Shown: positions 5,518 through 34,890 of the stretch, one piece after another
Layout of the letters: each line of letters begins with the position of its first letter
How positions within the stretch are numbered: the stretch's first letter is position 1
Source of the DNA: Gammaproteobacteria bacterium RIFCSPLOWO2_02_FULL_38_11
GTDB taxonomy: Bacteria; Pseudomonadota; Gammaproteobacteria; HIGHO2-12-38-15
Assembly (NCBI GenBank): GCA_001801745.1
Contig: MGYM01000039.1
Span: forward strand, 1 to 53,184
Length of the DNA: 53,184 nucleotides
Direction: 5' to 3'
Notes under the pieces: generated by a model
What the model saw: only the letters and a program-made list of their open reading frames with translations
Databases searched by the model: none
Told to the model about the DNA's origin: nothing
Program-made: the position numbers and the translations under genes

Positions 5518-6309
5518 TTATTTATTTTTTGTGACATCACACAAATTATTTCGAGATTGTAAATCGTCTGTTAACAACAAACTAAATGAAATTAGAATAG
5601 GATAAAAAAAATAAAAAATCACACACATCATGATAAGGTTACTTAGGATAACGTGATTTTTATCGATGTGAAAAATATAAAAATGTGAAACTAAATCAAA
5701 AATAATAAAGAAAACCATATAAAAAGAAATGGTTGAAATAACGATGCGCCACCAGTTTGAAAGACACAAATTACGAGTGTAGTTAATAGATTCTTTAAAA
5801 GACAGCGAAGGTTCTCGAAGTAATGCAAAAAGATAGATAAAAACCATAGGAAAATATAAAATTCCCCAAATTATTAGAAACAAGCCGGTTGAATAAAACA
5901 AAAGTATAAAAAATGTCCTGTCTTTTGGAAAATGGGGAGCGATCTTTGTCAGTAAAACTGAAAGTAAAAAAGGAAGCATGAAGGTAAAAATACCTTGCCA
6001 TAATTTTTTTTGTATTTTAATAGATTGTTTAAATGCAATAGCATAAGAAGTTATTTTTTTATAATGAATATTAAATATCAAGCATGCTATAAAAGAATAA
6101 AAAATAAAAGAAATAAAAGAAAAAAACAAAAGCGTTTGTTTTGAATAAGGTAAAATAAATTTAAACTCGAAATAATAAGAGCTAAAATGAAAAACAATTC
6201 CAATCAACAATATACCCAAAAATAGTAGTTTTATTTGAGGATAGAGTTGAAACGAAAGTTTTAACGAAGAAAAATAAAGTGATCGAATTTTTTTTGGAGC
6301 CGTTGTCAT
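5518..6309 (-). CDS. Hypothetical polytopic membrane protein (about 6 TM segments)
   Basis: 263-aa ORF, very hydrophobic and F/I/L-rich, with no recognisable family motif. Confidence 0.45.
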   Translation of the reverse strand: MTTAPKKIRSLYFSSLKLSFQLYPQIKLLFLGILLIGIVFHFSSYYFEFKFILPYSKQTLLFFSFISFIFYSFIACLIFNIHYKKITSYAIAFKQSIKIQKKLWQGIFTFMLPFLLSVLLTKIAPHFPKDRTFFILLFYSTGLFLIIWGILYFPMVFIYLFALLREPSLSFKESINYTRNLCLSNWWRIVISTISFYMVFFIIFDLVSHFYIFHIDKNHVILSNLIMMCVIFYFFYPILISFSLLLTDDLQSRNNLCDVTKNK

Positions 6310-7057
6310 GTCGTTTGTCCAGATAATAAGAAAAATAAATTTTAATTTAATTCTGCAATTTATTTCAGAGTCTTGTTTCCAAAGCCAATGTATTTTATGT
6401 GCAAACCCCGCAGAGAATAATATAAGCCTTTGCCAAGCTTGTAAACGCGATCTCCCTTGGCTTACTTATGTATGTTTTAAGTGTGGGCAACCTTTGCCAA
6501 CGGCAATGCGTTTTTGTGGTGTTTGTTTGAGGCAAACGCCCCCTTATTTTAGAACGATCGCATTGTTTCATTATGATGATTTGATTGCCTATTGTATCAG
6601 TTTGTTAAAATTTCAAAAATGTTTAGCGCTAGGAAAGACATTCGGAGTATTGATGGCTGAGTGTTTATTGCAGCATTATCAAAACGATATTTTTCCTGAA
6701 TGTATTATCCCTCTGCCTTTACATGAAAAGCGTTTAAAAGAACGAGGTTATAATCAAGCTTTAGAGCTTGCTCGGCCAATTTCAACTTTATTAAAATTGC
6801 CTATCGATGTATTTTCCTGTGCTCGAATCAAAGCAACATTGCCACAATCAAATACGCCTTCAGTCAAAGAAAGAAGAAGAAATGTAAAGAATGCCTTTAG
6901 ATTACTTCAGCCTTTACCCTATAAACATATTGCGCTCGTAGATGATGTGATGACGACCGGTTCAACGGTGGCGGCATGTGCGAATGCTTTAATGCAGGGA
7001 GGGGTTAAGCGTGTGGATATTTGGTGTTGTGCTCGGACGGGTGGGAATTTTTTCTGA
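6308..7057 (+). CDS. comF: ComF-family protein (amidophosphoribosyltransferase-like, ComFC)
   Basis: N-terminal double CxxC zinc-finger region (CILC..CQAC, CFKCG..CGVC) and a C-terminal PRTase motif ALVDDVMTTGST. The start codon is uncertain because it overlaps the divergent upstream gene's start. Confidence 0.8.
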   Translation: MSFVQIIRKINFNLILQFISESCFQSQCILCANPAENNISLCQACKRDLPWLTYVCFKCGQPLPTAMRFCGVCLRQTPPYFRTIALFHYDDLIAYCISLLKFQKCLALGKTFGVLMAECLLQHYQNDIFPECIIPLPLHEKRLKERGYNQALELARPISTLLKLPIDVFSCARIKATLPQSNTPSVKERRRNVKNAFRLLQPLPYKHIALVDDVMTTGSTVAACANALMQGGVKRVDIWCCARTGGNFF

Positions 7058-7084
7058 GACGAGTAAATGCTTATCAGGGTGTGC

Positions 7085-7672
7085 CTAAAATTCATATATT
7101 TTTTTTTCTGTTACAAGGTAGCTTAAAGGGATATCCCAAGCTTCGACAGGGAGGCAGTCCACCTTTTGACATTCATAGGCCAATCCCACCAAAACAGGCT
7201 TTTTACATTCAGCATCATTTTTTAGAAATGCGAAAGTGCGATCATAATAGCCTTGACCTGAGCCTAAACGGTTTCCTTGCATATCAAAAGCCAGGAGGGG
7301 TACAAGTACTAATTCTAATTTCGAAGAAAAAATAAAATTTTTATTTTCTGGTTCCGGGATACCATAACAATTTGAAATTAATTTTTCTCCTGGCGTGTAT
7401 TTTGAAAACAGAAGTGTGTTTGTTGTATTTTGTAAAACAGGTAGATAAATTATTTTTTTTGTTTGTTGTGCTTGTTCTAAAATACCCTTTGTTTCAACTT
7501 CATTTTGATGAGCATAATAACTTGCAATATTTTGGCTCTCTTTAAATAATTTATGAAAATAAAGATGTTGGGTTATTTGAATTGCACATTGACGTTGTTG
7601 GGTAGGGCTTAAGGTTTGACGATGGTGACGAAAACGGGAACGCAATAGTTTTTTTGAAGGTAATTCTTTCAT
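7085..7672 (-). CDS. ygfA: 5-formyltetrahydrofolate cyclo-ligase
   Basis: 195 aa. Motifs IASYYAHQNEV, YLPVL and VLVPLLAFDMQGNRLGSGQGYYDRTF are typical of the family. A 6S RNA-like sequence lies immediately upstream, as in E. coli ssrS-ygfA. Confidence 0.85.
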   Translation of the reverse strand: MKELPSKKLLRSRFRHHRQTLSPTQQRQCAIQITQHLYFHKLFKESQNIASYYAHQNEVETKGILEQAQQTKKIIYLPVLQNTTNTLLFSKYTPGEKLISNCYGIPEPENKNFIFSSKLELVLVPLLAFDMQGNRLGSGQGYYDRTFAFLKNDAECKKPVLVGLAYECQKVDCLPVEAWDIPLSYLVTEKKIYEF

Positions 7673-24807: not shown

Positions 24808-24950
24808 TGGCGCCTTTAAAAATTAAAGTTATGAGCGAGAAAGGTAGAAAAAACAGACGAAAAAGCGGAGTTTATAAATAATAAATGAGCATTTTGAGGA
24901 GGTTTTTTCATACTTTATCGCCATGAATTTAATTTTTAGAGGTGCCACTA
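24803..24950. mobile_element. MITE-like palindromic element, copy 3, inserted between icmT and icmS
   Basis: The left end cttaatggcgcctttaaaaattaaa pairs with the right end tttaatttttagaggtgccactaa. An internal taaatgagcatttt block is shared with copy 1. The left end contains the icmT stop codon, and the right end supplies AGAGGTG 8 nt before the icmS ATG. Confidence 0.5.
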
Positions 24951-25289
24951 ATGGATATCAGTAATCAATTATGTCTTATTACAAAAGCGCTGAAAGTTAC
25001 GTTTACTTTGAATCAACGTGTGATTCCACCTGAGGAAATTTTTTTAGATACCGGATTATTGCCTGCTATTGCAAGAAGGGCAGATCAGCTTGCTTCTCTT
25101 TGTTTAGGTTATGGCTTAGGTGTTTCTTTTTCTGAGGCTGAAAATGCTTTGCTGGGGGTTCGGGTTGTTTTTGATGAAGTTACCCCTAATCTACTTCGTT
25201 ATTTATGTATTCTTGACGTTATACAAGAATTAATTTATGCCTCAGGTAATCCTGCCTCCGTGTCACTAGATGAACTTATGTATGATTAG
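24951..25289 (+). CDS. icmS: Dot/Icm adaptor/chaperone IcmS
   Basis: The core TGLLPAIARRADQLASLCLGYGLG...ALLGVRVVFDEVTPNLLRYLC...LDELMYD closely matches L. pneumophila IcmS as I recall it. ATG at 24951 is preferred over GTG at 24942. Confidence 0.85.
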   Translation: MDISNQLCLITKALKVTFTLNQRVIPPEEIFLDTGLLPAIARRADQLASLCLGYGLGVSFSEAENALLGVRVVFDEVTPNLLRYLCILDVIQELIYASGNPASVSLDELMYD

Positions 25290-25333
25290 GGTTTTTATAG
25301 GGTTTAGACCGTTGTTTTTTGCATAAATTCTAT

Positions 25334-25353
25334 TTTAATATTTCCTTAATAAA
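25334..25353 (+). promoter_or_regulatory. PmrA-type tandem box (TTTAATATT-tc-CTTAATAAA; TTAA-N7-TTAA)
   Basis: It matches the published Legionella/Coxiella PmrA element cTTAATatT-N2-cTTAATatT at 15 of 18 positions, with an 11-bp repeat phase. A possible -10 (TAAACT, 25361-25366) follows. It lies about 50 nt upstream of the icmR-position gene. Confidence 0.45.
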
Positions 25354-25402
25354 AATAGACTAAACTAAAACATAAAGAGAGTTTTATTTGAAGGAATTAT
25401 AT

Positions 25403-25663
25403 ATGCATACAGATGATGCAATAAGAGAAGTAAAAGATTTGCTTTCTGAAGAGCTCAATCGACTTCAAACATTGGTAAGTTATAAAGAAAAAAACAGAAA
25501 ACACAAAGAAGAATATGACCCTGTACAGGATATGGGTGTTACGCACCAAATCGATGATGATAGAATTAATTTAGAGTTAATAAGAAAAGCTTTGGTAGAA
25601 GTTCAGCAATTAGAGCAAACACAAATAAACGATAAAAAACAAACGAGCGAAATAAAGAGATGA
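25403..25663 (+). CDS. Small acidic coiled-coil protein in the icmR position (candidate IcmQ chaperone, FIR-type)
   Basis: 86 aa from the ATG at 25403 (aagga SD). There is no similarity to L. pneumophila IcmR that I can see. It lies between icmS and icmQ, and its stop overlaps the icmQ start (ATGA). Confidence 0.5.
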   Translation: MHTDDAIREVKDLLSEELNRLQTLVSYKEKNRKHKEEYDPVQDMGVTHQIDDDRINLELIRKALVEVQQLEQTQINDKKQTSEIKR

Positions 25664-26244
25664 TGATGACACCCAAACAAGATGATTGCGCAACCAACAA
25701 TAAACTTATTTCTATCATGGATAATTTGATCCAAGAAGGGCATTGGGATAAAAGTTTATTTTTGAAAGCAACCGAAAAAGAAATTCGGAATCTTCGTGAT
25801 AAATTAAGTCAAGAATTAGTAACAAAAGAAAATGCAAGGAGTGAAGAAGAGGAAAAGGAATTAAGAAGTATTATTCCTGAGGGCAAACAAATTGTTTACG
25901 TCGGTCTTTATCAAACAGATGGACTTAAATTAACGCAGTGGGAAAATGCTTTGGAATTTTTGTTGGCCAGTAGTACTTCAAAACCTATTTACACTGATGA
26001 GACTTGTGTAAAAGATATGCTACTTAAAAAGGGAGCTACCTATAACAACGCTTATGCAGCCATGCTCATTGATAAAGACGATATTATTCCAGTGCCTGAA
26101 AAAATCGTCACCGATAAATTTGGTCACGAATTGTTAACCTTAAAAGAAGATGCTTTAAAAGTAAAAAACATAAGATATTTTGTTCATAAAACGGGTTGTT
26201 ATATTTTAGAAAAAAAACGTTTAATTAGAGAAAAAAATTCTTAA
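25660..26244 (+). CDS. icmQ: Dot/Icm protein IcmQ
   Basis: 194 aa (L. pneumophila IcmQ is about 191 aa). The N-terminal region LIQEGHWDKSLFLKATEKEIRNLRDKL resembles IcmQ (GPWDKSNFL...). Position is between the icmR-like gene and icmP. Confidence 0.75.
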   Translation: MMMTPKQDDCATNNKLISIMDNLIQEGHWDKSLFLKATEKEIRNLRDKLSQELVTKENARSEEEEKELRSIIPEGKQIVYVGLYQTDGLKLTQWENALEFLLASSTSKPIYTDETCVKDMLLKKGATYNNAYAAMLIDKDDIIPVPEKIVTDKFGHELLTLKEDALKVKNIRYFVHKTGCYILEKKRLIREKNS

Positions 26245-26305
26245 TTTTTCCCTCCTGTTATATACTTTATGAAATTTATCATTCTATTAAATATAGGAGC
26301 CATCT

Positions 26306-27433
26306 GTGGCGGGAGCACCTCAGCAGCAACAATCACAGCAAGATAGTGGGATGGGAGCGCTTTGGATTGCTGCTGTTGTAATATTGGTGATTTGGGGAAT
26401 TTGGCATTTTTATCATACTCAGATCGTTACCTTCATCATACACGTAAAATTATACGAAGCTTATTTAGTAAGTCTTTTTACCTCATCAATCGACCCATTG
26501 ATTCAGGCTATCGAGAATCTGACGCCAGAAGCATACGGTACTCTTTCTGTCAATCAAGTATTTATAGTGAGTGAGAAAATAGGAAAATATTATCAATTTC
26601 CAATCCTCATTTTTTCTCTTTTCGCAGGAGTTTATATTTTTAAACGTAGTCCCATCGTACAGTATCGTCAAAAATACACGATGGAAACCTTGGTGACAGA
26701 AGAAGAAAAAAATTGGCCTCAAATCACACCCGTCATGAAATTAGATTTGATTAAAATGAATATTGACGAAGGACCTTGGGCTTCTGCAATGACGCCATTA
26801 CAATTTGTGAAAAAACATAAAATTTTTAAAACCGTGCCGATTGAAACAGCGGAAGCTATTTTAGCGCATAAAACAAAATATTATGTTTCATTGTTTTCTG
26901 ATCAAGCTCATCGTGTCTTGAGTATGCAAATGGGGCCTTTGTGGAATGGTATAGATGCTCTACCTATTCATATGCAAGCTTTATTTTCTATTTTTGCAGC
27001 AAGGGGCGCGAAAGATTCCAAAAATTCTTCAGATCTATTAAATCAAATATCATTTTCTTCGAAGTCTGGAAAATTAAATTTTTCAGGAACTGCTTCGCTT
27101 TTAAAAAAATATCGTACTCACAAAAACGTTCAGAAAATTATTTCTTCTCATGCTTATGTTCTAACGGTTTTGGCTTCGATGCTTCAGCTTGCGCGTGAAG
27201 ATGGTGTACTGAGTAGTGCTGATTTTTTATGGCTAAAACCCCTCGATAGACCATTATGGTATATGTTAAATACAGTTGGACGTAAAACCCCGTTTATTGA
27301 AGTAGCCGGGGCTTATGGGCACTGGAAGGCAGAGCTTGAATTTGGTTATCCCATTATTGTTCCGATGGTGAATGAAGCGGTAAAGGCCTTAGATGCCGCT
27401 TTGAAAGAAATTTTATATATCCCTGAAGAGTAA
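26306..27433 (+). CDS. icmP: Dot/Icm coupling-complex protein IcmP/DotM
   Basis: GTG start after aggag. The C-terminal block HAYVLTVLASMLQLAREDGVLSSADFLWLKPLDRPLWYMLNTVGRKTPFIEVAGAYGHWKAE is near-identical in pattern to L. pneumophila IcmP. Confidence 0.85.
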   Translation: MAGAPQQQQSQQDSGMGALWIAAVVILVIWGIWHFYHTQIVTFIIHVKLYEAYLVSLFTSSIDPLIQAIENLTPEAYGTLSVNQVFIVSEKIGKYYQFPILIFSLFAGVYIFKRSPIVQYRQKYTMETLVTEEEKNWPQITPVMKLDLIKMNIDEGPWASAMTPLQFVKKHKIFKTVPIETAEAILAHKTKYYVSLFSDQAHRVLSMQMGPLWNGIDALPIHMQALFSIFAARGAKDSKNSSDLLNQISFSSKSGKLNFSGTASLLKKYRTHKNVQKIISSHAYVLTVLASMLQLAREDGVLSSADFLWLKPLDRPLWYMLNTVGRKTPFIEVAGAYGHWKAELEFGYPIIVPMVNEAVKALDAALKEILYIPEE

Positions 27434-27438
27434 AATCA

Positions 27439-29775
27439 ATGGCTAGAGGCTTAGAAAAGCGTGACGAGCAGAATCCCCATCTGTTATTACGGGATACGCG
27501 TACCTTAGGGCAGCGGTTTCTCGACTTTTTTAGAGACCCTTTTAATTTATTATTTAGTTTTTCTTTGAGTGGTGTTGCTCCTTTTTTTCTTCCTCAATTT
27601 GCGGATCTTATTGGACTAACCAGTATTATTATATTTTTATTTGTTTTTAAGATTAAAGCCAAATTACCTTATCGCTTACCTTTGCGATCTTATTTGATGG
27701 ATTACAATGACATTACACCTGGTACCAACAAACCCAGGAAAGCAGCGGGTATTTATTTTTTTGGTAACCAACTGAGGACACAAGAAGAATTATGGTTTTC
27801 AAATGAAGACATGCGTACACATGTTCTCATTTTTGGTTCAACAGGTTCAGGTAAAACAGAAATGTTAGTATCGCTTGCTTTAAATTCTTTAATCCAAGGT
27901 AGTGGTTTTATTTATATTGATGGAAAGGGTGATAACGCATTGTTTGCAAAAATATATTCGATGGTGCGTCGCATGGGGAGAGAAGATGATATGCTCCTCA
28001 TCAACTTTATGACGGGCGCAAAGGATATTGTGGGGCCACAAGAAAAACGATTGTCTAATACGATGAATCCTTTTTCCACGGGTTCTTCAAGTATGTTAGC
28101 GCAATTGATTGTTAACCTCATGCCCGAATCCAGTGCATCAGCAGATGGTGATATGTGGAAAGGACGTGCGATTGCTTTCGTGGAAGCTTTAATGAAAGTA
28201 CTTGTATATGCCAGAGACAAAAATTATATTTTATTAGATGCAAATACAGTACGTAATTATTTTGAATTACCTCGCTTAGAACCAATAGTAATAGATAAAA
28301 TATTTTTACGTGATAATCAGGAACCTGTTAGTTTGGCAGATGCGCCTTCTATTATTCTTGAGCCGATCGATAATTATTTAAAAAACTTACCGGGTTATGA
28401 TCGAACAAAGAAAGGAAAACAAGTATCTCAAGTCTTAGAACAACATGGTTTTATTACCATGCAATTAACGCGGGTATTTAGTTCCTTGGCAGATACCTAT
28501 GGGCATATCATTCGTACGAACTTGGCTGAAGTGGATGTAAAAGATGTCGTTTTAAATCGCCGTATTCTTGTTGTGCTTTTGCCTGCTTTGGAAAAATCTC
28601 CCGATGAATTAGCAAATTTAGGAAAAGTTATTGTGGCATCGTTAAAGGCAATGATGGCGGCAGGATTAGGTGATGAAGTGGAGGGGGCTTATAGTGATGT
28701 GATACTGCGAAAACCCACTAATTCGCCTACGCCTTTTCTTTGTATCATGGATGAATATGGTTATTATGCCGTGAAAGGATTCTCCGTGGTACCTGCCCAA
28801 GCACGTTCGCTAGGGTTTTCTGCTGTTTTTGCAGGACAAGACTTACCAGCGTTTCAAAAAGCCTCAAAAGAAGAGGCTGCTTCTATTGGTGCTAACACGA
28901 ATATTAAAATTTGTATGAAATTAGAAGATCCTGCTGAAACTTGGGAATTTTTCCAAAAAACGGCGGGTGAAGCATATGTGGCAAAAGTTGATTCTTTTTC
29001 AACACAAGCAACCAATCTTACAAATACTTATTTAGATACGAAGAGTGCTTCAACAGAAAAACGAGCGCGTATTGATTTGATGGATTTAAAAGATCAGACA
29101 CCTGGTGAAGCTCATATCTTCTTTCGTTCTACAATTATTCGCGCGAGATTGTTTCGTGCAGATCCACCACCTGCACCTTTTATGCGGTTAAATCAATTAT
29201 TAAAAGTTGAATCGCCACCGATGCGGCAGTTAATTAATTTGAATAATACGCTTGTGAAATTTCAAGAACTACTCGCGTCTGGAAAAGTATTTGAAAACTT
29301 AAATGTAGAAAATAAAGATATTAGTTTTATTTCAAAAATATTAACTGATCATAAAGTAGCCGATCCCGTTGAGCGCGGTGTGAATGCGTTAATCTCTTTC
29401 TATAATCACACCGAAGGGACGCCGGTAACAGGAATAACGGATGAGGTTGAAACAGAATCCCAAAATGAGTTGAATATCTTTACTTCTTTGCGTGCACCTG
29501 AAGGTATCGACAAGATAGCGATTAAAGGAGATATTGCTTTATTTTCAGCGCCTTTACTGAATAAAAGCCTGCTTCGAAATCAACTGAGTTATATTGAACG
29601 CTTATCTGGAAAAACTGAAAAACAAGCTTCGACGATTGGAGAAGAAATTATAAAAGATATGCAGCTTGCGACGTACTATCCTCCTTTCATTGCAGAAAAG
29701 ATGTTGGCGCCTGCCTTTGTTGAATTAATCAATGATCTTTCTAAACGTATTGCTGCTTCAGCTGCTTCTAAGTAG
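27439..29775 (+). CDS. icmO: Dot/Icm type IV coupling protein IcmO/DotL
   Basis: 778 aa with two N-terminal TM segments, Walker A FGSTGSGKT, a Walker B-like CIMDEYGYY, and a long C-terminal adaptor-binding tail. Confidence 0.9.
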   Translation: MARGLEKRDEQNPHLLLRDTRTLGQRFLDFFRDPFNLLFSFSLSGVAPFFLPQFADLIGLTSIIIFLFVFKIKAKLPYRLPLRSYLMDYNDITPGTNKPRKAAGIYFFGNQLRTQEELWFSNEDMRTHVLIFGSTGSGKTEMLVSLALNSLIQGSGFIYIDGKGDNALFAKIYSMVRRMGREDDMLLINFMTGAKDIVGPQEKRLSNTMNPFSTGSSSMLAQLIVNLMPESSASADGDMWKGRAIAFVEALMKVLVYARDKNYILLDANTVRNYFELPRLEPIVIDKIFLRDNQEPVSLADAPSIILEPIDNYLKNLPGYDRTKKGKQVSQVLEQHGFITMQLTRVFSSLADTYGHIIRTNLAEVDVKDVVLNRRILVVLLPALEKSPDELANLGKVIVASLKAMMAAGLGDEVEGAYSDVILRKPTNSPTPFLCIMDEYGYYAVKGFSVVPAQARSLGFSAVFAGQDLPAFQKASKEEAASIGANTNIKICMKLEDPAETWEFFQKTAGEAYVAKVDSFSTQATNLTNTYLDTKSASTEKRARIDLMDLKDQTPGEAHIFFRSTIIRARLFRADPPPAPFMRLNQLLKVESPPMRQLINLNNTLVKFQELLASGKVFENLNVENKDISFISKILTDHKVADPVERGVNALISFYNHTEGTPVTGITDEVETESQNELNIFTSLRAPEGIDKIAIKGDIALFSAPLLNKSLLRNQLSYIERLSGKTEKQASTIGEEIIKDMQLATYYPPFIAEKMLAPAFVELINDLSKRIAASAASK

Positions 29776-29830
29776 CTTACTGTGACAAGGTCAAGTTTTT
29801 AATTTAAAATTTTTTATAAGGGTAAGCACG

Positions 29831-31510
29831 CTAAGTTTCGATATTAATTTTAATTTCTATTAGATATGATTTTAATTTACCTAAGCCTTTTATTTCTGTG
29901 ATTTCGCAAGGTGTAATTTTGTAATGTTCTTTCCTTAAAAGTGCGGCGTAAGTTTCTTCAGTGATTTTTACTTTATCTGGCACCCCAGTTGATTCCATGC
30001 GGCTAGCTCTATTAACTGCATTGCCCCATAAATCATAACTAAATTTTTTCTGACCGATAATGCCGGAAGTAACTACACCAGAATCAATCCCCACGCGCAC
30101 TGATAAACCTAAATTATGATCTAAATCATAGTGTTTTACGGCTAGAATTGCTTCGATACCAAAATTTGTAGCGTTATTTGCATGTTCTTTATGAGCTGAA
30201 ATTAAACCTGCAACAGCCATATAAGCATCACCAATAGTTTTGATTTTTTCCATGTGATATTTTTCGCATAATTTGTCAAATAAAGAAAAAATTTCATCGA
30301 GTATTCTGACTACAGCCTCAGGCGTATGCTTCGATGTAAAAGGTGTGAAATTTGTAATATCGATAAATACGATAGAAACATCGTTCACATTGCGCGGTAA
30401 AAATTGTTTTTTCTCTTTTAATTCTTCGATAACAAATTTAGGTAAAATATTTTCTAATAAATCTGCGGTTTTGGCTTGGGCTTTCCATAAAGCCTTGGCG
30501 ATCCAGCTCGCTAGTAAAGCTACCAATAATATGCTAACACTAATTAAAATTAACATTTGAATGCGCAAGGCATGTATTTTTTCGAATACTTCTTTTTTTT
30601 CATAAGTTATTGCCATGCCCATATTTAATTGCGGTACATAACTATATACAGCAACACGGGCGATATGTTGGTAAAAAAACTCAATCGGATCAGCAATTTT
30701 GCCGCGAATTGCTTGCGCTAATAAATTAGTAACTTCTGGTGACAATGCTAACTGGGAATAATTTTCATATTTGATAGCAGTGTCCATAACGATAGCCACG
30801 CTATTATCAATTTTAGCAGCTAAAATGGTATTTTCAGTTTTTCCATAACCTAATTGTCTTTCAACAATTCTTTTAATATCACGCAGATCTAATTCCATAA
30901 TTAAAATTGCTTTAAATGGCGTATCAGTTTCTATAATGTTAGATATATAAATATGAGTGCTTGAGTCTTTGCCTTGTTGATAAGAAGCAAAAAGGTAAGG
31001 TATGCGTAGAATTCTTGCTCCATCAAAACTTCGAAATAATGGTAAATTTTTTAAATCTTGTGCTGTTAAAGTTATATCCACTAAATTTTTATTAAAAAGA
31101 GAAAAGATTATTTTGCCTTGAGAATTTGCGATATAAATATCTTTAACACCCATTTTAGGCAGCAAGTAACTTAAATAATTAGCGAATAATTTTACATCCA
31201 AGCTTTCTTTGCTAGCCTGACCCCGCTCCATTTTATCAATTAAAGTTTGTAACCTAGGTAATTTGCTTATTTGTTTTATATCTAATTTTCTTTCATTAAT
31301 ATATTGATCGATAGTTTCAACTTTTTTTTGCACGGCTGTTAGCAATGTTTCATGAATTGTAAAATTAAAGGCATCATACGCTAAATCATAAGCAAAAATA
31401 CTCGAAAAAATCATAGGAAGTAAAGAAACCACTAACATCCAAGGCATAATCATGCTTTGAGAGAAAATGTACTCTACTGTTTTTTTAATTTTTATTAACA
31501 CAATTCCCAT
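29831..31510 (-). CDS. Membrane sensor adenylate cyclase (periplasmic Cache-like domain, TM segment, class III cyclase)
   Basis: TM1 (about aa 22-44), a roughly 270-aa extracytoplasmic domain, then TM2 (ILISVSILLVALLASWIA). The catalytic domain carries VFIDITNFT, EKIKTIGDAYMAVAG and YDLWGNAVNRASRMES. The Lys (KTIGD) and Asp (DLWG) specificity residues predict ATP use. Confidence 0.85.
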   Translation of the reverse strand: MGIVLIKIKKTVEYIFSQSMIMPWMLVVSLLPMIFSSIFAYDLAYDAFNFTIHETLLTAVQKKVETIDQYINERKLDIKQISKLPRLQTLIDKMERGQASKESLDVKLFANYLSYLLPKMGVKDIYIANSQGKIIFSLFNKNLVDITLTAQDLKNLPLFRSFDGARILRIPYLFASYQQGKDSSTHIYISNIIETDTPFKAILIMELDLRDIKRIVERQLGYGKTENTILAAKIDNSVAIVMDTAIKYENYSQLALSPEVTNLLAQAIRGKIADPIEFFYQHIARVAVYSYVPQLNMGMAITYEKKEVFEKIHALRIQMLILISVSILLVALLASWIAKALWKAQAKTADLLENILPKFVIEELKEKKQFLPRNVNDVSIVFIDITNFTPFTSKHTPEAVVRILDEIFSLFDKLCEKYHMEKIKTIGDAYMAVAGLISAHKEHANNATNFGIEAILAVKHYDLDHNLGLSVRVGIDSGVVTSGIIGQKKFSYDLWGNAVNRASRMESTGVPDKVKITEETYAALLRKEHYKITPCEITEIKGLGKLKSYLIEIKINIET

Positions 31511-31512
31511 TG

Positions 31513-32757
31513 TTAATCGACCTCAGCCAAGTATAATTTATATTCGAATAATTCCCATTCTGCTCTGGTGTTAAATTCTGGATAAACTATAGGCTCAATA
31601 GGATTGTAAGAAGACCAAACAATATCAAACAAACCTTTATTATTAATTTTGCCTAACATAACAGTACGCCAGGCATGAGCGTTGTAAGGATCTATGTAAA
31701 TAACGCCTGCGGGAGAAGCAACGCTTTGTCTTAACATAAAATTATAAATAACGTTTGGAGTTAAGCTTGGCGCTTCATTGGCAGCTTGCGCCCATAAATA
31801 TACGCCGGCATAAGCAGTAACGGCGGGATCATTTATATTTTTAGTAGAGCCATATTTATTTTGATAAGCTTTTAAAAAATCAGAATTTTCCGGTAAGTTT
31901 TGCGTTATAAAGTAGGACCAAGCAGCCAGATCGCCAGTGATTTTTCCAGCGCCAATTTTATTTATATCTTCAGGAGATAAACTAAATGACATGACAACTG
32001 GGCGTTTAATATCGCTAGCTAAGGTATTTAAACGTGTAAAAAAAGCTATGTTGCTGTCACCATTAATAGTATTGAAAATAATATCAGGCTGAGATTTTAA
32101 AATATCATTTATAGCATGATCTACATTATTACTGCCTAGAGGAATATAGGCTTCGCCAACTATATTACCGCCTAAATTTTTTACTTCATGTGTGATTATT
32201 TCATTGGCCACATGAGGAAAAATATAATTACTACCAACTAAAAATACTTTTTTACCATAATTATTTACAGTCCAGGCTATAGCAGGGATAATTTGTTGAT
32301 TAGGGGTGGTGCCTAAATAAATGATGTTTGGTGATTGTTCAATACCTTCATATTGAGTAGAATAAATTAATAAATTATTATATTTTTCCACTACTTCTTT
32401 TACTTTTTTGCGTGAAGCCGAAGTCCAACAAGCAAAAATTATATCCACCTTGTCTTTTTTAATCATTGTTTCAGCAAGCGTTCCGTAGCGCTTCCAATTT
32501 GAAGCAGCATCATATGCTACAGGAATGATTTTTTGCCCTTTAATGCCGCCGCGCGTATTGATCTCTTCAATTGCTAAAAGAACAGCATTAATGACCGGTT
32601 GTTCACTGTTTGCCATAGTGCCAGTTTTAGAAAAAAGCACTCCTACCTTAACTTCTCCATCGTTTTTAAAAACCTGTTTTTTTACTATCCAAGCAAATAA
32701 TGCTAAAACGATAAGGGAAATGATTAAAAGAAAAATATATTTGCGCAAAAATTGCAT
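31513..32757 (-). CDS. UrtA/AmiC-family (urea/short-chain amide type) periplasmic binding protein, membrane anchored, with no cognate ABC transporter
   Basis: N-terminal TM anchor. VKVGVLFSKTGTMANSE, LLAIEEINTRGGIKG, ACWTSASRK, YSTQYEG, GTTPNQQ, TINGDSN, GDLAAWSYF and INDPAVTAY track the UrtA/AmiC pattern as I recall it. The stop lies 2 nt before the cyclase start. Confidence 0.8.
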   Translation of the reverse strand: MQFLRKYIFLLIISLIVLALFAWIVKKQVFKNDGEVKVGVLFSKTGTMANSEQPVINAVLLAIEEINTRGGIKGQKIIPVAYDAASNWKRYGTLAETMIKKDKVDIIFACWTSASRKKVKEVVEKYNNLLIYSTQYEGIEQSPNIIYLGTTPNQQIIPAIAWTVNNYGKKVFLVGSNYIFPHVANEIITHEVKNLGGNIVGEAYIPLGSNNVDHAINDILKSQPDIIFNTINGDSNIAFFTRLNTLASDIKRPVVMSFSLSPEDINKIGAGKITGDLAAWSYFITQNLPENSDFLKAYQNKYGSTKNINDPAVTAYAGVYLWAQAANEAPSLTPNVIYNFMLRQSVASPAGVIYIDPYNAHAWRTVMLGKINNKGLFDIVWSSYNPIEPIVYPEFNTRAEWELFEYKLYLAEVD

Positions 32758-32816
32758 ATATTTAAAGGCCCCAATGGTTCATATTTTGTAACATAGGATC
32801 TAATATGATACTTCCT

Positions 32817-34220
32817 TTAATTAATTTTACGGCTGATAGGATTTTCTAGCGTGTTGTTTGCATAAGAAGATGAAACACTCAAACCTTTTAATAAATGCAA
32901 GGCCTCTTGTGTTTGATAATCTTTTTGAAGTACTTGAAGTAAGGCTTGATTGCTATCATCGGCAGTTGTTTTTATAGCGTTAGTCGATAGAGGATGTGGA
33001 GAAGCATTGTCAACAGATAAATGATTTTCTAGCTCAGATTCTTTAATATCAAAACCATCATCCTGATTTACTCTGCTCACTATTGTTTTGTTCTCTAATT
33101 TGATGTCAGGCACAATGCCTTTTGCTTGGATAGATCGTCCTGAGGGTGTGTAATACAAAGAGGTGGTCAGCTTCATGGCTGTTTTCCCACCCTCCAACGC
33201 AAATACAGTTTGTACAGAACCTTTTCCAAAACTTGTTTGTCCCATGATGATAGCGCGACGATAATCTTGTAAAGCACCTGCTACGATTTCAGAGCCGGAA
33301 GCGGAGCCTCCGTTGATGAGTATCACTAAAGGCGCCTTGTTTAGTAAATCTTTTTCTTTTGAAGAATCAACCGCAAAAATAGAATCAGGTGTTCTGCCTT
33401 TTGCAGATACAATGGGTTTGTGGCCATCAATGAATTTATCTGCAACCTCTACTGCTGAATCAAGTAACCCCCCTGGATTATTACGTAAATCTAATATCAT
33501 CCCTTTTAATTTTCCTCCGGATTTTTTTTCAAGTGTTTTTATTGCCTTGCTTAATTCATCGGGCGTTTGTTCTTGAAAATAACCTATACGTACGTAGCCA
33601 TAACCAGCCTCAAGTAATTCATGGTTTACACTTTTTAAATTAATTACTTTACGTGTAATGCGAACAGTAAAAGGTGAGGGTTGTCCTTTTCGGTAAAGAG
33701 TAAGGCTTACAACGCTATTATTGGGTCCTTGGATTTTTTTAATAACATCTTGTAAAGGTAAGTTCATCAAGGGCATGTTGTTAATTTTTAATAAATAATC
33801 GCCGGGTTTAATGTTCGCTTCTTTTGCCGGTGAGCCGTCTAAGGCGCTGATTACTTTTGTGGCGCTATCTTCTTTGATTAATTCTAAACCCACACCAGAA
33901 TATTTACCGGTTGTCGTAGAATTTAAAAAATGTAAATCTTCTTTATCTAAATAACTAGAATGTGGATCCAATCCTTCTAGCATGCCTCGTATGGCATTTT
34001 CATATAATTTTTCTTCTGAAACTTCTTTAACGTAATTTTTTTTGATATCTTCAACAGCGTCAAAAAATTTAGTTAAATTTTTCTGATGAGGGGTGTTGTC
34101 AATGTCATCTTGTAAACTTAAGGCAAGACTCAATCGTGTTGAAGTTAGAGAAAATAAAAAAACAAAAATCAAAATTGTTGTTTTTGATTTTTTATTCGAA
34201 GTCAGTGTTATCCTTTTCAT
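32817..34220 (-). CDS. Carboxy-terminal processing protease (S41 family, Ctp/Prc-like)
   Basis: Signal peptide, a PDZ domain (GSPAKEANIKPGDYLLKIN), an S41 catalytic region (LINGGSASGSEI with the Ser nucleophile) and a TSFGKG Lys region. Confidence 0.9.
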   Translation of the reverse strand: MKRITLTSNKKSKTTILIFVFLFSLTSTRLSLALSLQDDIDNTPHQKNLTKFFDAVEDIKKNYVKEVSEEKLYENAIRGMLEGLDPHSSYLDKEDLHFLNSTTTGKYSGVGLELIKEDSATKVISALDGSPAKEANIKPGDYLLKINNMPLMNLPLQDVIKKIQGPNNSVVSLTLYRKGQPSPFTVRITRKVINLKSVNHELLEAGYGYVRIGYFQEQTPDELSKAIKTLEKKSGGKLKGMILDLRNNPGGLLDSAVEVADKFIDGHKPIVSAKGRTPDSIFAVDSSKEKDLLNKAPLVILINGGSASGSEIVAGALQDYRRAIIMGQTSFGKGSVQTVFALEGGKTAMKLTTSLYYTPSGRSIQAKGIVPDIKLENKTIVSRVNQDDGFDIKESELENHLSVDNASPHPLSTNAIKTTADDSNQALLQVLQKDYQTQEALHLLKGLSVSSSYANNTLENPISRKIN

Positions 34221-34303
34221 AAAATACTTAAAAAAGTGAATTTAATGAAAGTATAGACCAAATTGGAAAATTAAGAGGCAGTTTTTGATTAAAAATAAGC
34301 CGA

Positions 34304-34876
34304 TCAAGCCCTTTTAGTAGAGGTTTCAGGGCTATGGAGATTGCAGAGCAAGCCTTTTCTCTTTTGAAGGGCGAGCTCCAAACCTTCTTTTTCCATTTTT
34401 TGATTTTGATATATTTTTTCTAGTGAACTTTGATGGGTCAAAAGAGTTTGGTTTGTCTTTTCAAGTAAATTGATGGTTTTCATCATTTGCTGGGCAAGCG
34501 TAAGCTGTGCTTGGTTTAAATGAGTGAGATAAACACGTATTTTTTCATCTTCGCTGACTGCTTTTTGTGTGAGAAGTGTTTGAAGAAGCGGTGTTTCTTT
34601 GATGCGATAAGCCAAGAGGAGTTGTTGATTTAGCGCTTCTTTTTCTTTTTGTAGCTTTACTTTTAATGCAGTTTCTTCTTGAGTTAACTGATTTATTTTT
34701 TCTTTTTCTTCAAAAATTATTTTTTTAGTATTTTCCATTTTGAGGCTTAAATTTGAAATTGAAATTTCGGTTTTTTGTATTTGCTTTTCTACAAGAAGTC
34801 GTTGATTTTCATTAGAGGTAAATGCAGCGTAGTTTAAGCTAGGGATAAAAAACAATAAGAGAAGTAATTTTTTCAT
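34304..34876 (-). CDS. EnvC-like coiled-coil protein lacking the LytM/M23 domain (truncated murein hydrolase activator)
   Basis: 190 aa with a signal peptide and a Q/L/K/E-rich coiled coil. It sits in the conserved gpmI-envC-ctp position. Only 83 bp remain before the next gene, leaving no room for a LytM domain. Confidence 0.5.
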   Translation of the reverse strand: MKKLLLLLFFIPSLNYAAFTSNENQRLLVEKQIQKTEISISNLSLKMENTKKIIFEEKEKINQLTQEETALKVKLQKEKEALNQQLLLAYRIKETPLLQTLLTQKAVSEDEKIRVYLTHLNQAQLTLAQQMMKTINLLEKTNQTLLTHQSSLEKIYQNQKMEKEGLELALQKRKGLLCNLHSPETSTKRA

Positions 34877-34890
34877 AAACTTAATCCTTG

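Follow-up and report, generated by a model that had tools for sequence, protein, structure and literature searches.

A predicted urea-responsive receptor composed of a UrtA-like binding protein and a dCache class IIIa adenylate cyclase in a Legionellales-like gammaproteobacterium

Two adjacent genes on a 53,184-nucleotide contig of Gammaproteobacteria bacterium RIFCSPLOWO2_02_FULL_38_11 (GenBank assembly GCA_001801745.1, contig MGYM01000039.1; this whole stretch is hereafter called the window) probably encode a two-protein transmembrane receptor that couples urea, or a close small amide, to cyclic AMP (cAMP). We put the probability of this reading at roughly 0.6. The first gene (31513..32757, minus strand) encodes a solute-binding protein (SBP) of 414 amino acids that is of the UrtA-like signalling type and matches the Pfam family Peripla_BP_5 (E 3.4e-131). 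The second gene (29831..31510, minus strand) encodes a protein of 559 amino acids that, based on Pfam matches and an AlphaFold2 (AF2) model of its open reading frame, is a predicted class IIIa adenylate cyclase with a periplasmic double Cache (dCache) domain. An earlier note on this DNA, made from the sequence alone, proposed that a binding protein independent of any transporter feeds a Cache-type adenylate cyclase. This proposal is supported by the recurrence of the pair, by the linkage of a whole clade of such binding proteins to membrane sensors, and by the intact catalytic residues of the cyclase.

Conservation of the gene pair

The order SBP gene followed by cyclase gene is found in 8 unrelated contexts (the window, L005, L010/L011, the P0028 contig, L012, L013, L098 and L100; the handles are our own). 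A motif scan for the cyclase in 185,579 species genomes returned only two orthologues, one in a metagenome-assembled genome (MAG) of an uncultured Legionella sp. and one in a Rifle gammaproteobacterial MAG, and in both the SBP gene is immediately upstream. The neighborhood was also surveyed from the SBP side, in eleven genomic contexts of the nearest homologues outside the window's own contigs. A dCache-type or homologous sensor membrane protein is encoded directly 3' of the SBP gene in 10 of the 11; the contig of the eleventh (L099) breaks off after 54 codons of the gene that follows the SBP gene. The sensor has a cyclase output in L005, L010/L011, the P0028 contig, L098 and L100, a HAMP-histidine kinase output in Anabaena cylindrica (L008/L009), L015 and L017, and a HAMP-SpoIIE phosphatase output in L016.

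The periplasmic domains of the cyclases and of the kinases are homologous, as judged by BLAST (E 7e-21) and by alignment. Word-indexed searches with the periplasmic domain of the cyclase gave 4 proteins when it was used alone and 12 when an alignment was used, and an exhaustive profile search was used instead. With E<1e-30 as the limit, that search gave a sensor-domain family of 499 cluster representatives. Among the 66 best sensor homologues, Pfam found HAMP in 50, histidine kinase domains in 38, cyclase domains in 8, SpoIIE in 7 and methyl-accepting chemotaxis protein domains in 3, with dCache_1 detected in 64 of the 66 at E<1e-4.

A metagenome scan with the SBP alignment provided 80 loci, which were split by the N-terminus of the SBP, its C-terminal tail and the next gene. 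Signalling-type SBPs have a transmembrane-like N-terminus and a C-terminal EW..F..LY..W(G/N)..W.N motif; they are followed by a dCache sensor in 12 loci and by permeases in none. SBPs without the W..W tail are followed by permeases in 37 loci and by sensors in 3. The transporter-type proteins of those 37 loci have signal-peptide, lipobox or twin-arginine N-termini and other tails, and are followed by two multi-spanning permeases and ABC ATPases, an arrangement that is the true urtABCDE. Overall, SBP and receptor genes are adjacent in 8 cyclase-type loci and in more than 15 loci with other outputs. The conserved linkage of SBP and cyclase that the earlier note proposed to survey was thus found in 8 contexts, and members of the clade were never beside urt permeases. 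The opposite pattern, in which urt or liv genes partner the SBP and linkage to the cyclase is not conserved, was named in that note as evidence against the idea and was not encountered in the loci surveyed.

Signalling-type SBPs are also fused directly to cytoplasmic signalling domains. The fusions have the order Ser/Thr kinase (Pkinase), transmembrane segment, SBP in L028, L044, L046 and L076, and the order Trans_reg_C (a ToxR-like winged helix-turn-helix domain), transmembrane segment, SBP in L031, L032 and L035. In L042, an SBP is followed by HAMP, HisKA and HATPase domains. Because the UrtA-like domain is fused to kinases and regulators, it serves as a signalling ectodomain. The fused forms are themselves candidate one-protein urea receptors.

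Divergence of the SBPs is congruent with divergence of the sensors (r = 0.71, Mantel p ~8e-4, 13 pairs), which fits inheritance of the SBP and the sensor as a unit. Taken with the comparisons of termini and of neighboring genes, the SBP of the window falls within a separate clade of UrtA-like signalling proteins that have an N-terminal anchor and usually a W...W tail. The pair in the window is one output variant of a larger, widespread module consisting of an SBP and a dCache protein.

The junction of the two genes in the window (31508..31524, minus strand) consists of GAGG (31524-31521), the SBP stop codon TAA (31515-31513), CA, and the cyclase ATG (31510-31508). The sequence reads TAA-CA-ATG, with the 2 nt between stop and start that had been described. 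The GAGG is 10 nt 5' of the ATG and within the SBP gene, and translational coupling of the two genes is plausible. Spacing was compared in the window, L005, L010, L012, L013, L098, L100 and the P0028 contig, with L011 left out. It ranges from a 23-nt overlap of called genes in the P0028 contig to +17 nt, and is -11 to +17 nt in the orthologous pairs of L005, L010, L012, L013, L098 and L100. Since tight spacing is kept in other loci, co-transcription and translational coupling of the two genes are likely. The sequencing runs that contain the locus are DNA only (groundwater and soil metagenome). Identical copies of the SBP and the cyclase are present in Rifle/ACD groundwater MAGs labelled "Gammaproteobacteria bacterium" or "uncultured bacterium", where the only database annotations of the proteins are "hypothetical protein" and "PAS fold family".

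The binding protein and its predicted ligand

The SBP is a member of Peripla_BP_5 (PF13433), which it matches with 438 bits against a cutoff of 27 over profile positions 1-361 of 363. Additional Pfam matches are to Peripla_BP_6 and ANF_receptor, the latter with 32.7 bits against a cutoff of 25.4. The periplasmic type I binding fold spans residues 36-396 by the Pfam coordinates (31570..32652, minus strand). The closest solved structures are UrtA-type proteins, 8tg1 (E 1.6e-100) followed by 8hic, 7s6e and 7s6f (~1e-74), and the next solved relative is AmiC (1pea, 5e-56). The family match and this order of relatives bear out the UrtA/AmiC signature first read from the sequence. The subfamily is a different matter at the level of profiles: Peripla_BP_5 was matched, but the best NCBIfam model, UrtA TIGR03407, scored 397.3 bits, below its curated cutoff of 492.75. 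The SBP differs from UrtA proper in two defining features, the curated score and the operon context. It is also not AmiC-like, with an export anchor present and no AmiR partner found; Pfam scans of the window found no ANTAR gene.

The N-terminus of the SBP consists of MQFLRK, 19 uncharged residues and then KKQ, and has no lipobox. The hydrophobic segment (residues 7-25; 32683..32739, minus strand) is probably a signal anchor, based on its sequence and on comparison with homologues. An N-terminal extension of at least 20 amino acids is present in 117 of the 120 nearest homologues, in which the longest uncharged N-terminal run has a median of 18 residues and is frequently aromatic at its end. 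Only 4 of the 120 have a lipobox-like motif, and the other 116 have a positive N-region and a long, aromatic-rich hydrophobic segment of the type seen in the window. The anchor-like character assigned to this N-terminus in the earlier note is therefore shared by its nearest homologues. It is plausible that the anchor is not cleaved; cleavage may instead occur after A22.

A terminal W..SW.N, carried by 113 of the 120 nearest homologues, is missing from the C-terminus of the SBP, ...EWELFEYKLYLAEVD (31513-31560, minus strand). The terminal W..W is likewise missing from three further SBPs that are linked to sensors (L026, L040 and L064). A frameshift was considered as the cause of the short C-terminus and rejected. 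The W..S..N in the +1 frame is wrongly spaced relative to the motif of the clade, and the identical protein is encoded in ~20 contigs of independent samples.

The urea pocket of P. marinus UrtA was defined in a crystallographic and mutational study as nine residues, W120, S122, Y141, Q144, E146, Y190, (F192), N246 and S274 (PMC10392092). Mutation of four of the pocket residues significantly reduces or abolishes urea binding (PMC10392092). In an alignment to this protein the SBP of the window is identical at 9 of 9 positions (W111, S113, Y132, Q135, E137, Y178, F180, N232 and S259). All nine residues are kept in 89 of the 120 nearest homologues, and at least eight in 104. Because all nine urea-pocket residues are conserved, urea, or a very close small amide, is the best ligand prediction for the SBP. 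Inspection of the ligand pocket had been recommended when the ligand was given as urea, amide or amino acid; urea is now singled out by pocket conservation, and the broader list is narrowed.

It is conceivable that the same two-protein mechanism responds to another small polar molecule, such as formamide, acetamide, hydroxyurea, a guanidine-like compound or carbamate. AmiC has the same fold and binds acetamide, the signalling clade is just 40-44% identical to characterized UrtAs, and the pocket comparison covers first-shell residues. We nevertheless consider such a ligand quite unlikely, given that those first-shell residues are identical at 9 of 9 positions, including the four at which mutation affects urea binding (PMC10392092).

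The SBP could also be an ordinary orphan UrtA that serves urtBCDE encoded elsewhere in the genome, in which case its position beside the cyclase gene would be coincidental or purely regulatory. Such a role would suit a Peripla_BP_5 protein that has 40-44% identity to solved UrtAs and an intact urea pocket, and the window is only 53 kb of the genome. Within the window, no ABC permease or ATPase, urease or amidase turned up in Pfam scans of essentially all open reading frames or in a motif scan; urtBCDE and liv genes, earlier noted as missing nearby, are absent from all 53 kb. What makes an orphan UrtA very improbable is the score below the UrtA equivalog cutoff, the distribution of the clade with a transmembrane anchor, which is beside permeases in 0 of 12 or more loci versus 37 for the transporter clade, and the conservation of the SBP-cyclase pair in 8 contexts.

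The adenylate cyclase

The cyclase has a long stalk helix and two PAS-like modules between two transmembrane helices in the AF2 model. The first transmembrane helix (TM1) is a hydrophobic segment at residues ~21-41 (31388..31450) and is part of a model helix at residues 18-82. The second (TM2) is a hydrophobic segment at residues ~314-338 (30497..30571) within a model helix at residues 310-355. Between the two is the periplasmic dCache sensor domain, residues ~42-313 (30572..31387), assigned with AF2 and Foldseek. TM2 is connected to the catalytic domain by the helical linker ADLLENILPKFVIEELKEKKQF (30392..30496), placed by orthologue alignment. The class III catalytic domain occupies residues 374-552 (29855..30391), based on Pfam and on structural matches. 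All of these features are on the minus strand.

The cyclase scores 29.9 bits against dCache_1 (PF02743), for which the gathering score is 45. The AF2 model of the full-length protein, made with a 52-sequence alignment, has a pLDDT of 90.5. A fold search with this model was swamped by the catalytic domain; the periplasmic domain was modelled separately (residues 40-316, pLDDT 89.7, pTM 0.86). The top 50 Foldseek matches of the periplasmic model in the PDB are all dCache ligand-binding domains (probability 1.0, TM-score ~0.6-0.69) and include Tlp3, DctB, McpH, Mlp24, PctA/B and PscC. According to the model, the periplasmic domain is a double Cache despite the sub-threshold Pfam score. This result agrees with the Cache-like periplasmic domain of ~270 amino acids that had been recognized from the sequence.

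The catalytic domain matches Guanylate_cyc (PF00211) with E 2.7e-57. The best sequence matches of the cyclase are mammalian membrane adenylate cyclases and Rv1625c of M. tuberculosis, and the guanylate cyclase GC-A also aligns. Structural matches of the catalytic domain to cyclases have TM-scores of 0.85-0.93 normalized to the target. The metal ligands D384 and D428, the ATP-specifying pair K424 and D493, and R472, N500 and R504 are invariant in six orthologues that have 42-49% identity to the protein of the window. The catalytic hexad is complete, transition-state Asn and Arg residues included. Because the catalytic and specificity residues are intact, the protein is predicted to be an active adenylate cyclase with cAMP as its product. 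The Lys and Asp specificity residues of a class III domain, pointed out in the earlier note, are K424 and D493.

No HAMP match was found in the cyclase with Pfam. TM2 leads directly into the helix LLENILPKFVIEELKEKKQF, which is conserved in all orthologues aligned and aligns with the segment before C2 of mammalian AC9. We take this linker helix to resemble the "cyclase transducer element" of class IIIa/b enzymes.

Proposed mechanism

It is proposed that the SBP is held at the inner membrane by its N-terminal anchor with the UrtA-type Venus-flytrap domain facing the periplasm. The Venus-flytrap domain would bind urea, or a very close small amide, in its cleft. The SBP would contact the periplasmic dCache domain of a dimeric cyclase, and closure of the flytrap on the ligand would alter this contact. 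TM2 and the helical linker would relay the altered contact to the catalytic dimer, which is of class IIIa, and cAMP synthesis would change, in either direction.

The dCache domain of the cyclase might itself be the ligand sensor, with the SBP acting as a modulatory second input, an inhibitor or a stabilizer. In most characterized dCache domains the membrane-distal module is where small ligands bind directly, the structural neighbors of the periplasmic model are all ligand-bound dCache domains, and the orthologue alignment shows good conservation of the sensor domain in the cyclase subgroup. This division of roles is nonetheless unlikely, because linkage to a UrtA-like SBP is kept across all output types and the SBP pocket is clearly conserved. 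LuxQ, the model case of a tandem-PAS sensor that depends on an SBP, is recorded as having no ligand of its own (PMC8694187).

Several points weigh against the two-protein receptor with the SBP as its ligand-binding component. We infer both the retention of the anchor and the periplasmic location of the SBP from its sequence, and retention in particular is a point of doubt. Physical contact between the SBP and the dCache domain is likewise presumed, with the congruent divergence as indirect support. The dCache domain may have its own ligand. The SBP of the window, without the W..SW.N tail, may differ from other copies if the tail mediates docking. There is no urease gene in the 53-kb window. 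Finally, the mirror-tree correlation can arise from co-inheritance alone.

A broader reading can be put forward tentatively, with slightly less than even odds. Membrane-anchored UrtA-like SBPs and dCache transducers would together constitute a widespread, undescribed bacterial family of receptors for urea or a small amide. The outputs of this family would be histidine kinases, chemoreceptors, PP2C phosphatases and adenylate cyclases, with direct fusions to Ser/Thr kinases and ToxR-like regulators. The pair in the window would be the first SBP-gated class III cyclase, by which a Dot/Icm-carrying and probably host-associated bacterium could respond through cAMP to urea as a cue from its environment or its host.

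Genomic surroundings

The cyclase gene and dotL/icmO (27439-29775) converge, their stop codons lying 55 bp apart, and the pair adjoins the Dot/Icm coupling-protein genes as had been reported. The Dot/Icm block (24942-29775, plus strand) also contains icmS (24942-25289), a small called gene at the icmR position (~25403-25663), icmQ (25660-26244) and dotM/icmP (26306-27433). This type IVB secretion block marks the organism as Legionellales-like. A functional link of the pair to Dot/Icm was considered and rejected, as the orthologous pairs sit in unrelated neighborhoods. Their neighbors include sigma-factor and pyrF genes, LysR and MFS genes, cytochrome c oxidase (COX) and TatC genes, and beta-lactamase and ThrE genes, among others. 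The adjacency to dotL/icmO is probably incidental. Elsewhere in this Dot/Icm-carrying genome, an ankyrin-repeat protein of 556 amino acids (38480-40150, plus strand) is a candidate eukaryote-targeting effector.

A block of genes on the same strand is 5' of the pair (32817-37450, minus strand) and encodes an epimerase, the phosphoglycerate mutase GpmI (gpmI, iPGM), a coiled-coil protein of 190 amino acids and a CtpA-like S41 peptidase. The gap from ctpA to the SBP gene is 59 bp. A promoter and terminator scan of 29600-34400 gave a site count no higher than in shuffled sequences and placed no site inside the 59-bp gap 5' of the SBP gene. Because the gap is 59 bp and holds no promoter-like site, the pair may be co-transcribed with the ctpA-containing block.

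Farther from the pair, a cluster at 40126-45112 (minus strand) resembles those for aminoarabinose modification of lipid A (arn-like). It encodes a polysaccharide deacetylase, a GT2 glycosyltransferase, a DegT-type aminotransferase, a small EamA-like membrane protein and an ArnT/PMT-family transferase with an Arnt_C domain. A COX operon encoding cytochrome c, COX2, COX1 and COX3 is located at 46298-52112 (plus strand), ~14 kb from the pair. On the P0028 contig a COX operon is a few kb from the SBP-cyclase pair. The COX operons near both pairs hint at residual synteny between the two genomes.

Sister loci contain additional genes that are related to cyclic nucleotides. A divergent hydrolase of the metallo-beta-lactamase (MBL) fold is encoded directly 5' of the SBP gene in four cyclase-type loci, namely L012 (3792-4559, minus strand), L010 (6838-7656, minus strand), L100 (2487-3302, plus strand) and the P0028 contig. 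The hydrolase of L012 matches the anti-Pycsar Apyc1 family above threshold with 94 bits. Those of L010 and L100 match Lactamase_B_2, and the Apyc1 family is among the precomputed hits of that of the P0028 contig. The MBL-fold hydrolase may be a cyclic-nucleotide phosphodiesterase. A gene for a cyclic nucleotide monophosphate (cNMP)-binding protein of 147 amino acids is near the pair on the P0028 contig. Genes for patatin-like phospholipases are near the pair in L098 (3056-4855), L010 (10975-12126) and L100 (1084-2163), all on the minus strand. The patatin of L098 has an N-terminal cNMP-binding domain and is a possible cAMP effector. The cNMP-binding, patatin and Apyc1-like neighbors in the sister loci are consistent with a cAMP output. 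Genes for an MBL-fold hydrolase, a cNMP-binding protein or a patatin were not found in the window.

In one of the sister loci the cyclase gene appears to be interrupted. In L012, from the uncultured Legionella sp. MAG, the cyclase match extends over 6001-7552, yet the only open reading frame listed at its start has 115 amino acids (5965-6312). The gene may have a frameshift, be misassembled or be a pseudogene.

Significance

A predicted urea-gated, SBP-dependent class IIIa adenylate cyclase is an apparently undescribed variant of the SBP-dependent receptor principle. If the prediction is true, urea could be assigned as the ligand of hundreds of orphan receptors, including those of genetically tractable cyanobacteria. 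cAMP would join the outputs that are gated by solute-binding proteins. The pair would also provide a simple two-gene cassette for studying the control that a Venus-flytrap protein exerts on a dCache domain and a class III cyclase. The pair further suggests that a nitrogen-waste cue feeds cAMP signalling in Legionellales-like organisms, and in the sister loci this signalling would adjoin cNMP-binding patatin-like lipases and a putative cyclic-nucleotide hydrolase.

Comparison with known systems

A 2021 review of SBP-dependent signalling covers chemoreceptors, kinases, c-di-GMP enzymes and Ser/Thr kinases, and no adenylate cyclase (PMC8050422). The literature searched gave no description of a module of a UrtA-like SBP and a dCache protein. 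The earlier note knew of no characterized SBP-cyclase sensor, and that literature and the review show none either. Type I SBPs that work with a tandem-PAS/dCache domain are known from LuxP-LuxQ and BasB-BasT (PMC8050422). As in the window, LuxP of the Vibrio autoinducer-2 (AI-2) system is a dedicated, non-transport type I SBP whose gene adjoins the receptor gene (PMC8050422). The periplasmic domain of the receptor is also tandem-PAS/dCache-like, and it is the SBP that recognizes the ligand (PMC8050422, PMC8694187). LuxP differs in that it belongs to Peripla_BP_4, is soluble and binds AI-2, and the output of LuxQ is a hybrid histidine kinase. In contrast, the pair in the window has a Peripla_BP_5 protein, apparently anchored and with urea as its predicted ligand, and a class IIIa cyclase without HAMP. 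BasB-BasT of Halobacterium salinarum resembles the pair in combining a membrane-tethered type I SBP (Peripla_BP_6) with a dCache-like transducer (PMC8050422), but is archaeal and has a lipid anchor, amino acid ligands and a chemoreceptor output.

Among proteins that share the fold of the SBP, UrtA (e.g., P. marinus 8HIC) belongs to the same family, with ~40-44% identity and an identical nine-residue urea pocket. It differs in having a cleaved signal peptide (or a lipobox or twin-arginine signal), another C-terminal tail and a urtABCDE operon. AmiC-AmiR of Pseudomonas aeruginosa is an example of the UrtA/AmiC fold being used for signalling and not for transport. However, AmiC resides in the cytoplasm, has acetamide as its ligand and acts by sequestering the antiterminator AmiR, whereas the SBP of the window bears an anchor at its N-terminus and a pocket of the urea type, and its partner is a membrane cyclase.

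The ANF-receptor guanylate cyclases and the receptor adenylate cyclases of trypanosomatids have, like the pair, a type I periplasmic-binding-protein fold outside and a class III cyclase inside. In those receptors the binding fold is fused to a single-pass cyclase chain, whereas in the window it is a protein of its own, the SBP, with a dCache domain presumably mediating its effect on the cyclase. The analogy with ANF-receptor cyclases, drawn in the earlier note, is valid for the placement of the two folds and breaks down in that the receptor ectodomain there consists of the binding fold itself. PDB 5ERE, which is Dret_0059 of Desulfohalobium retbaense, is among the structural matches of the cyclase periplasmic domain. 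Dret_0059 is reported to combine an SBP and a tandem PAS-like (dCache) domain in one periplasmic sensor (Wu et al. 2017, Protein Sci 26:857, cited in PMC8694187). It differs from the pair in having both modules on a single chain and an SBP part that is not of the UrtA-like kind, with no sequence match to the SBP of the window. LuxP-LuxQ is the closest mechanistic counterpart of the pair, together with BasB-BasT and the fused Dret_0059, ahead of the ANF-receptor cyclases.

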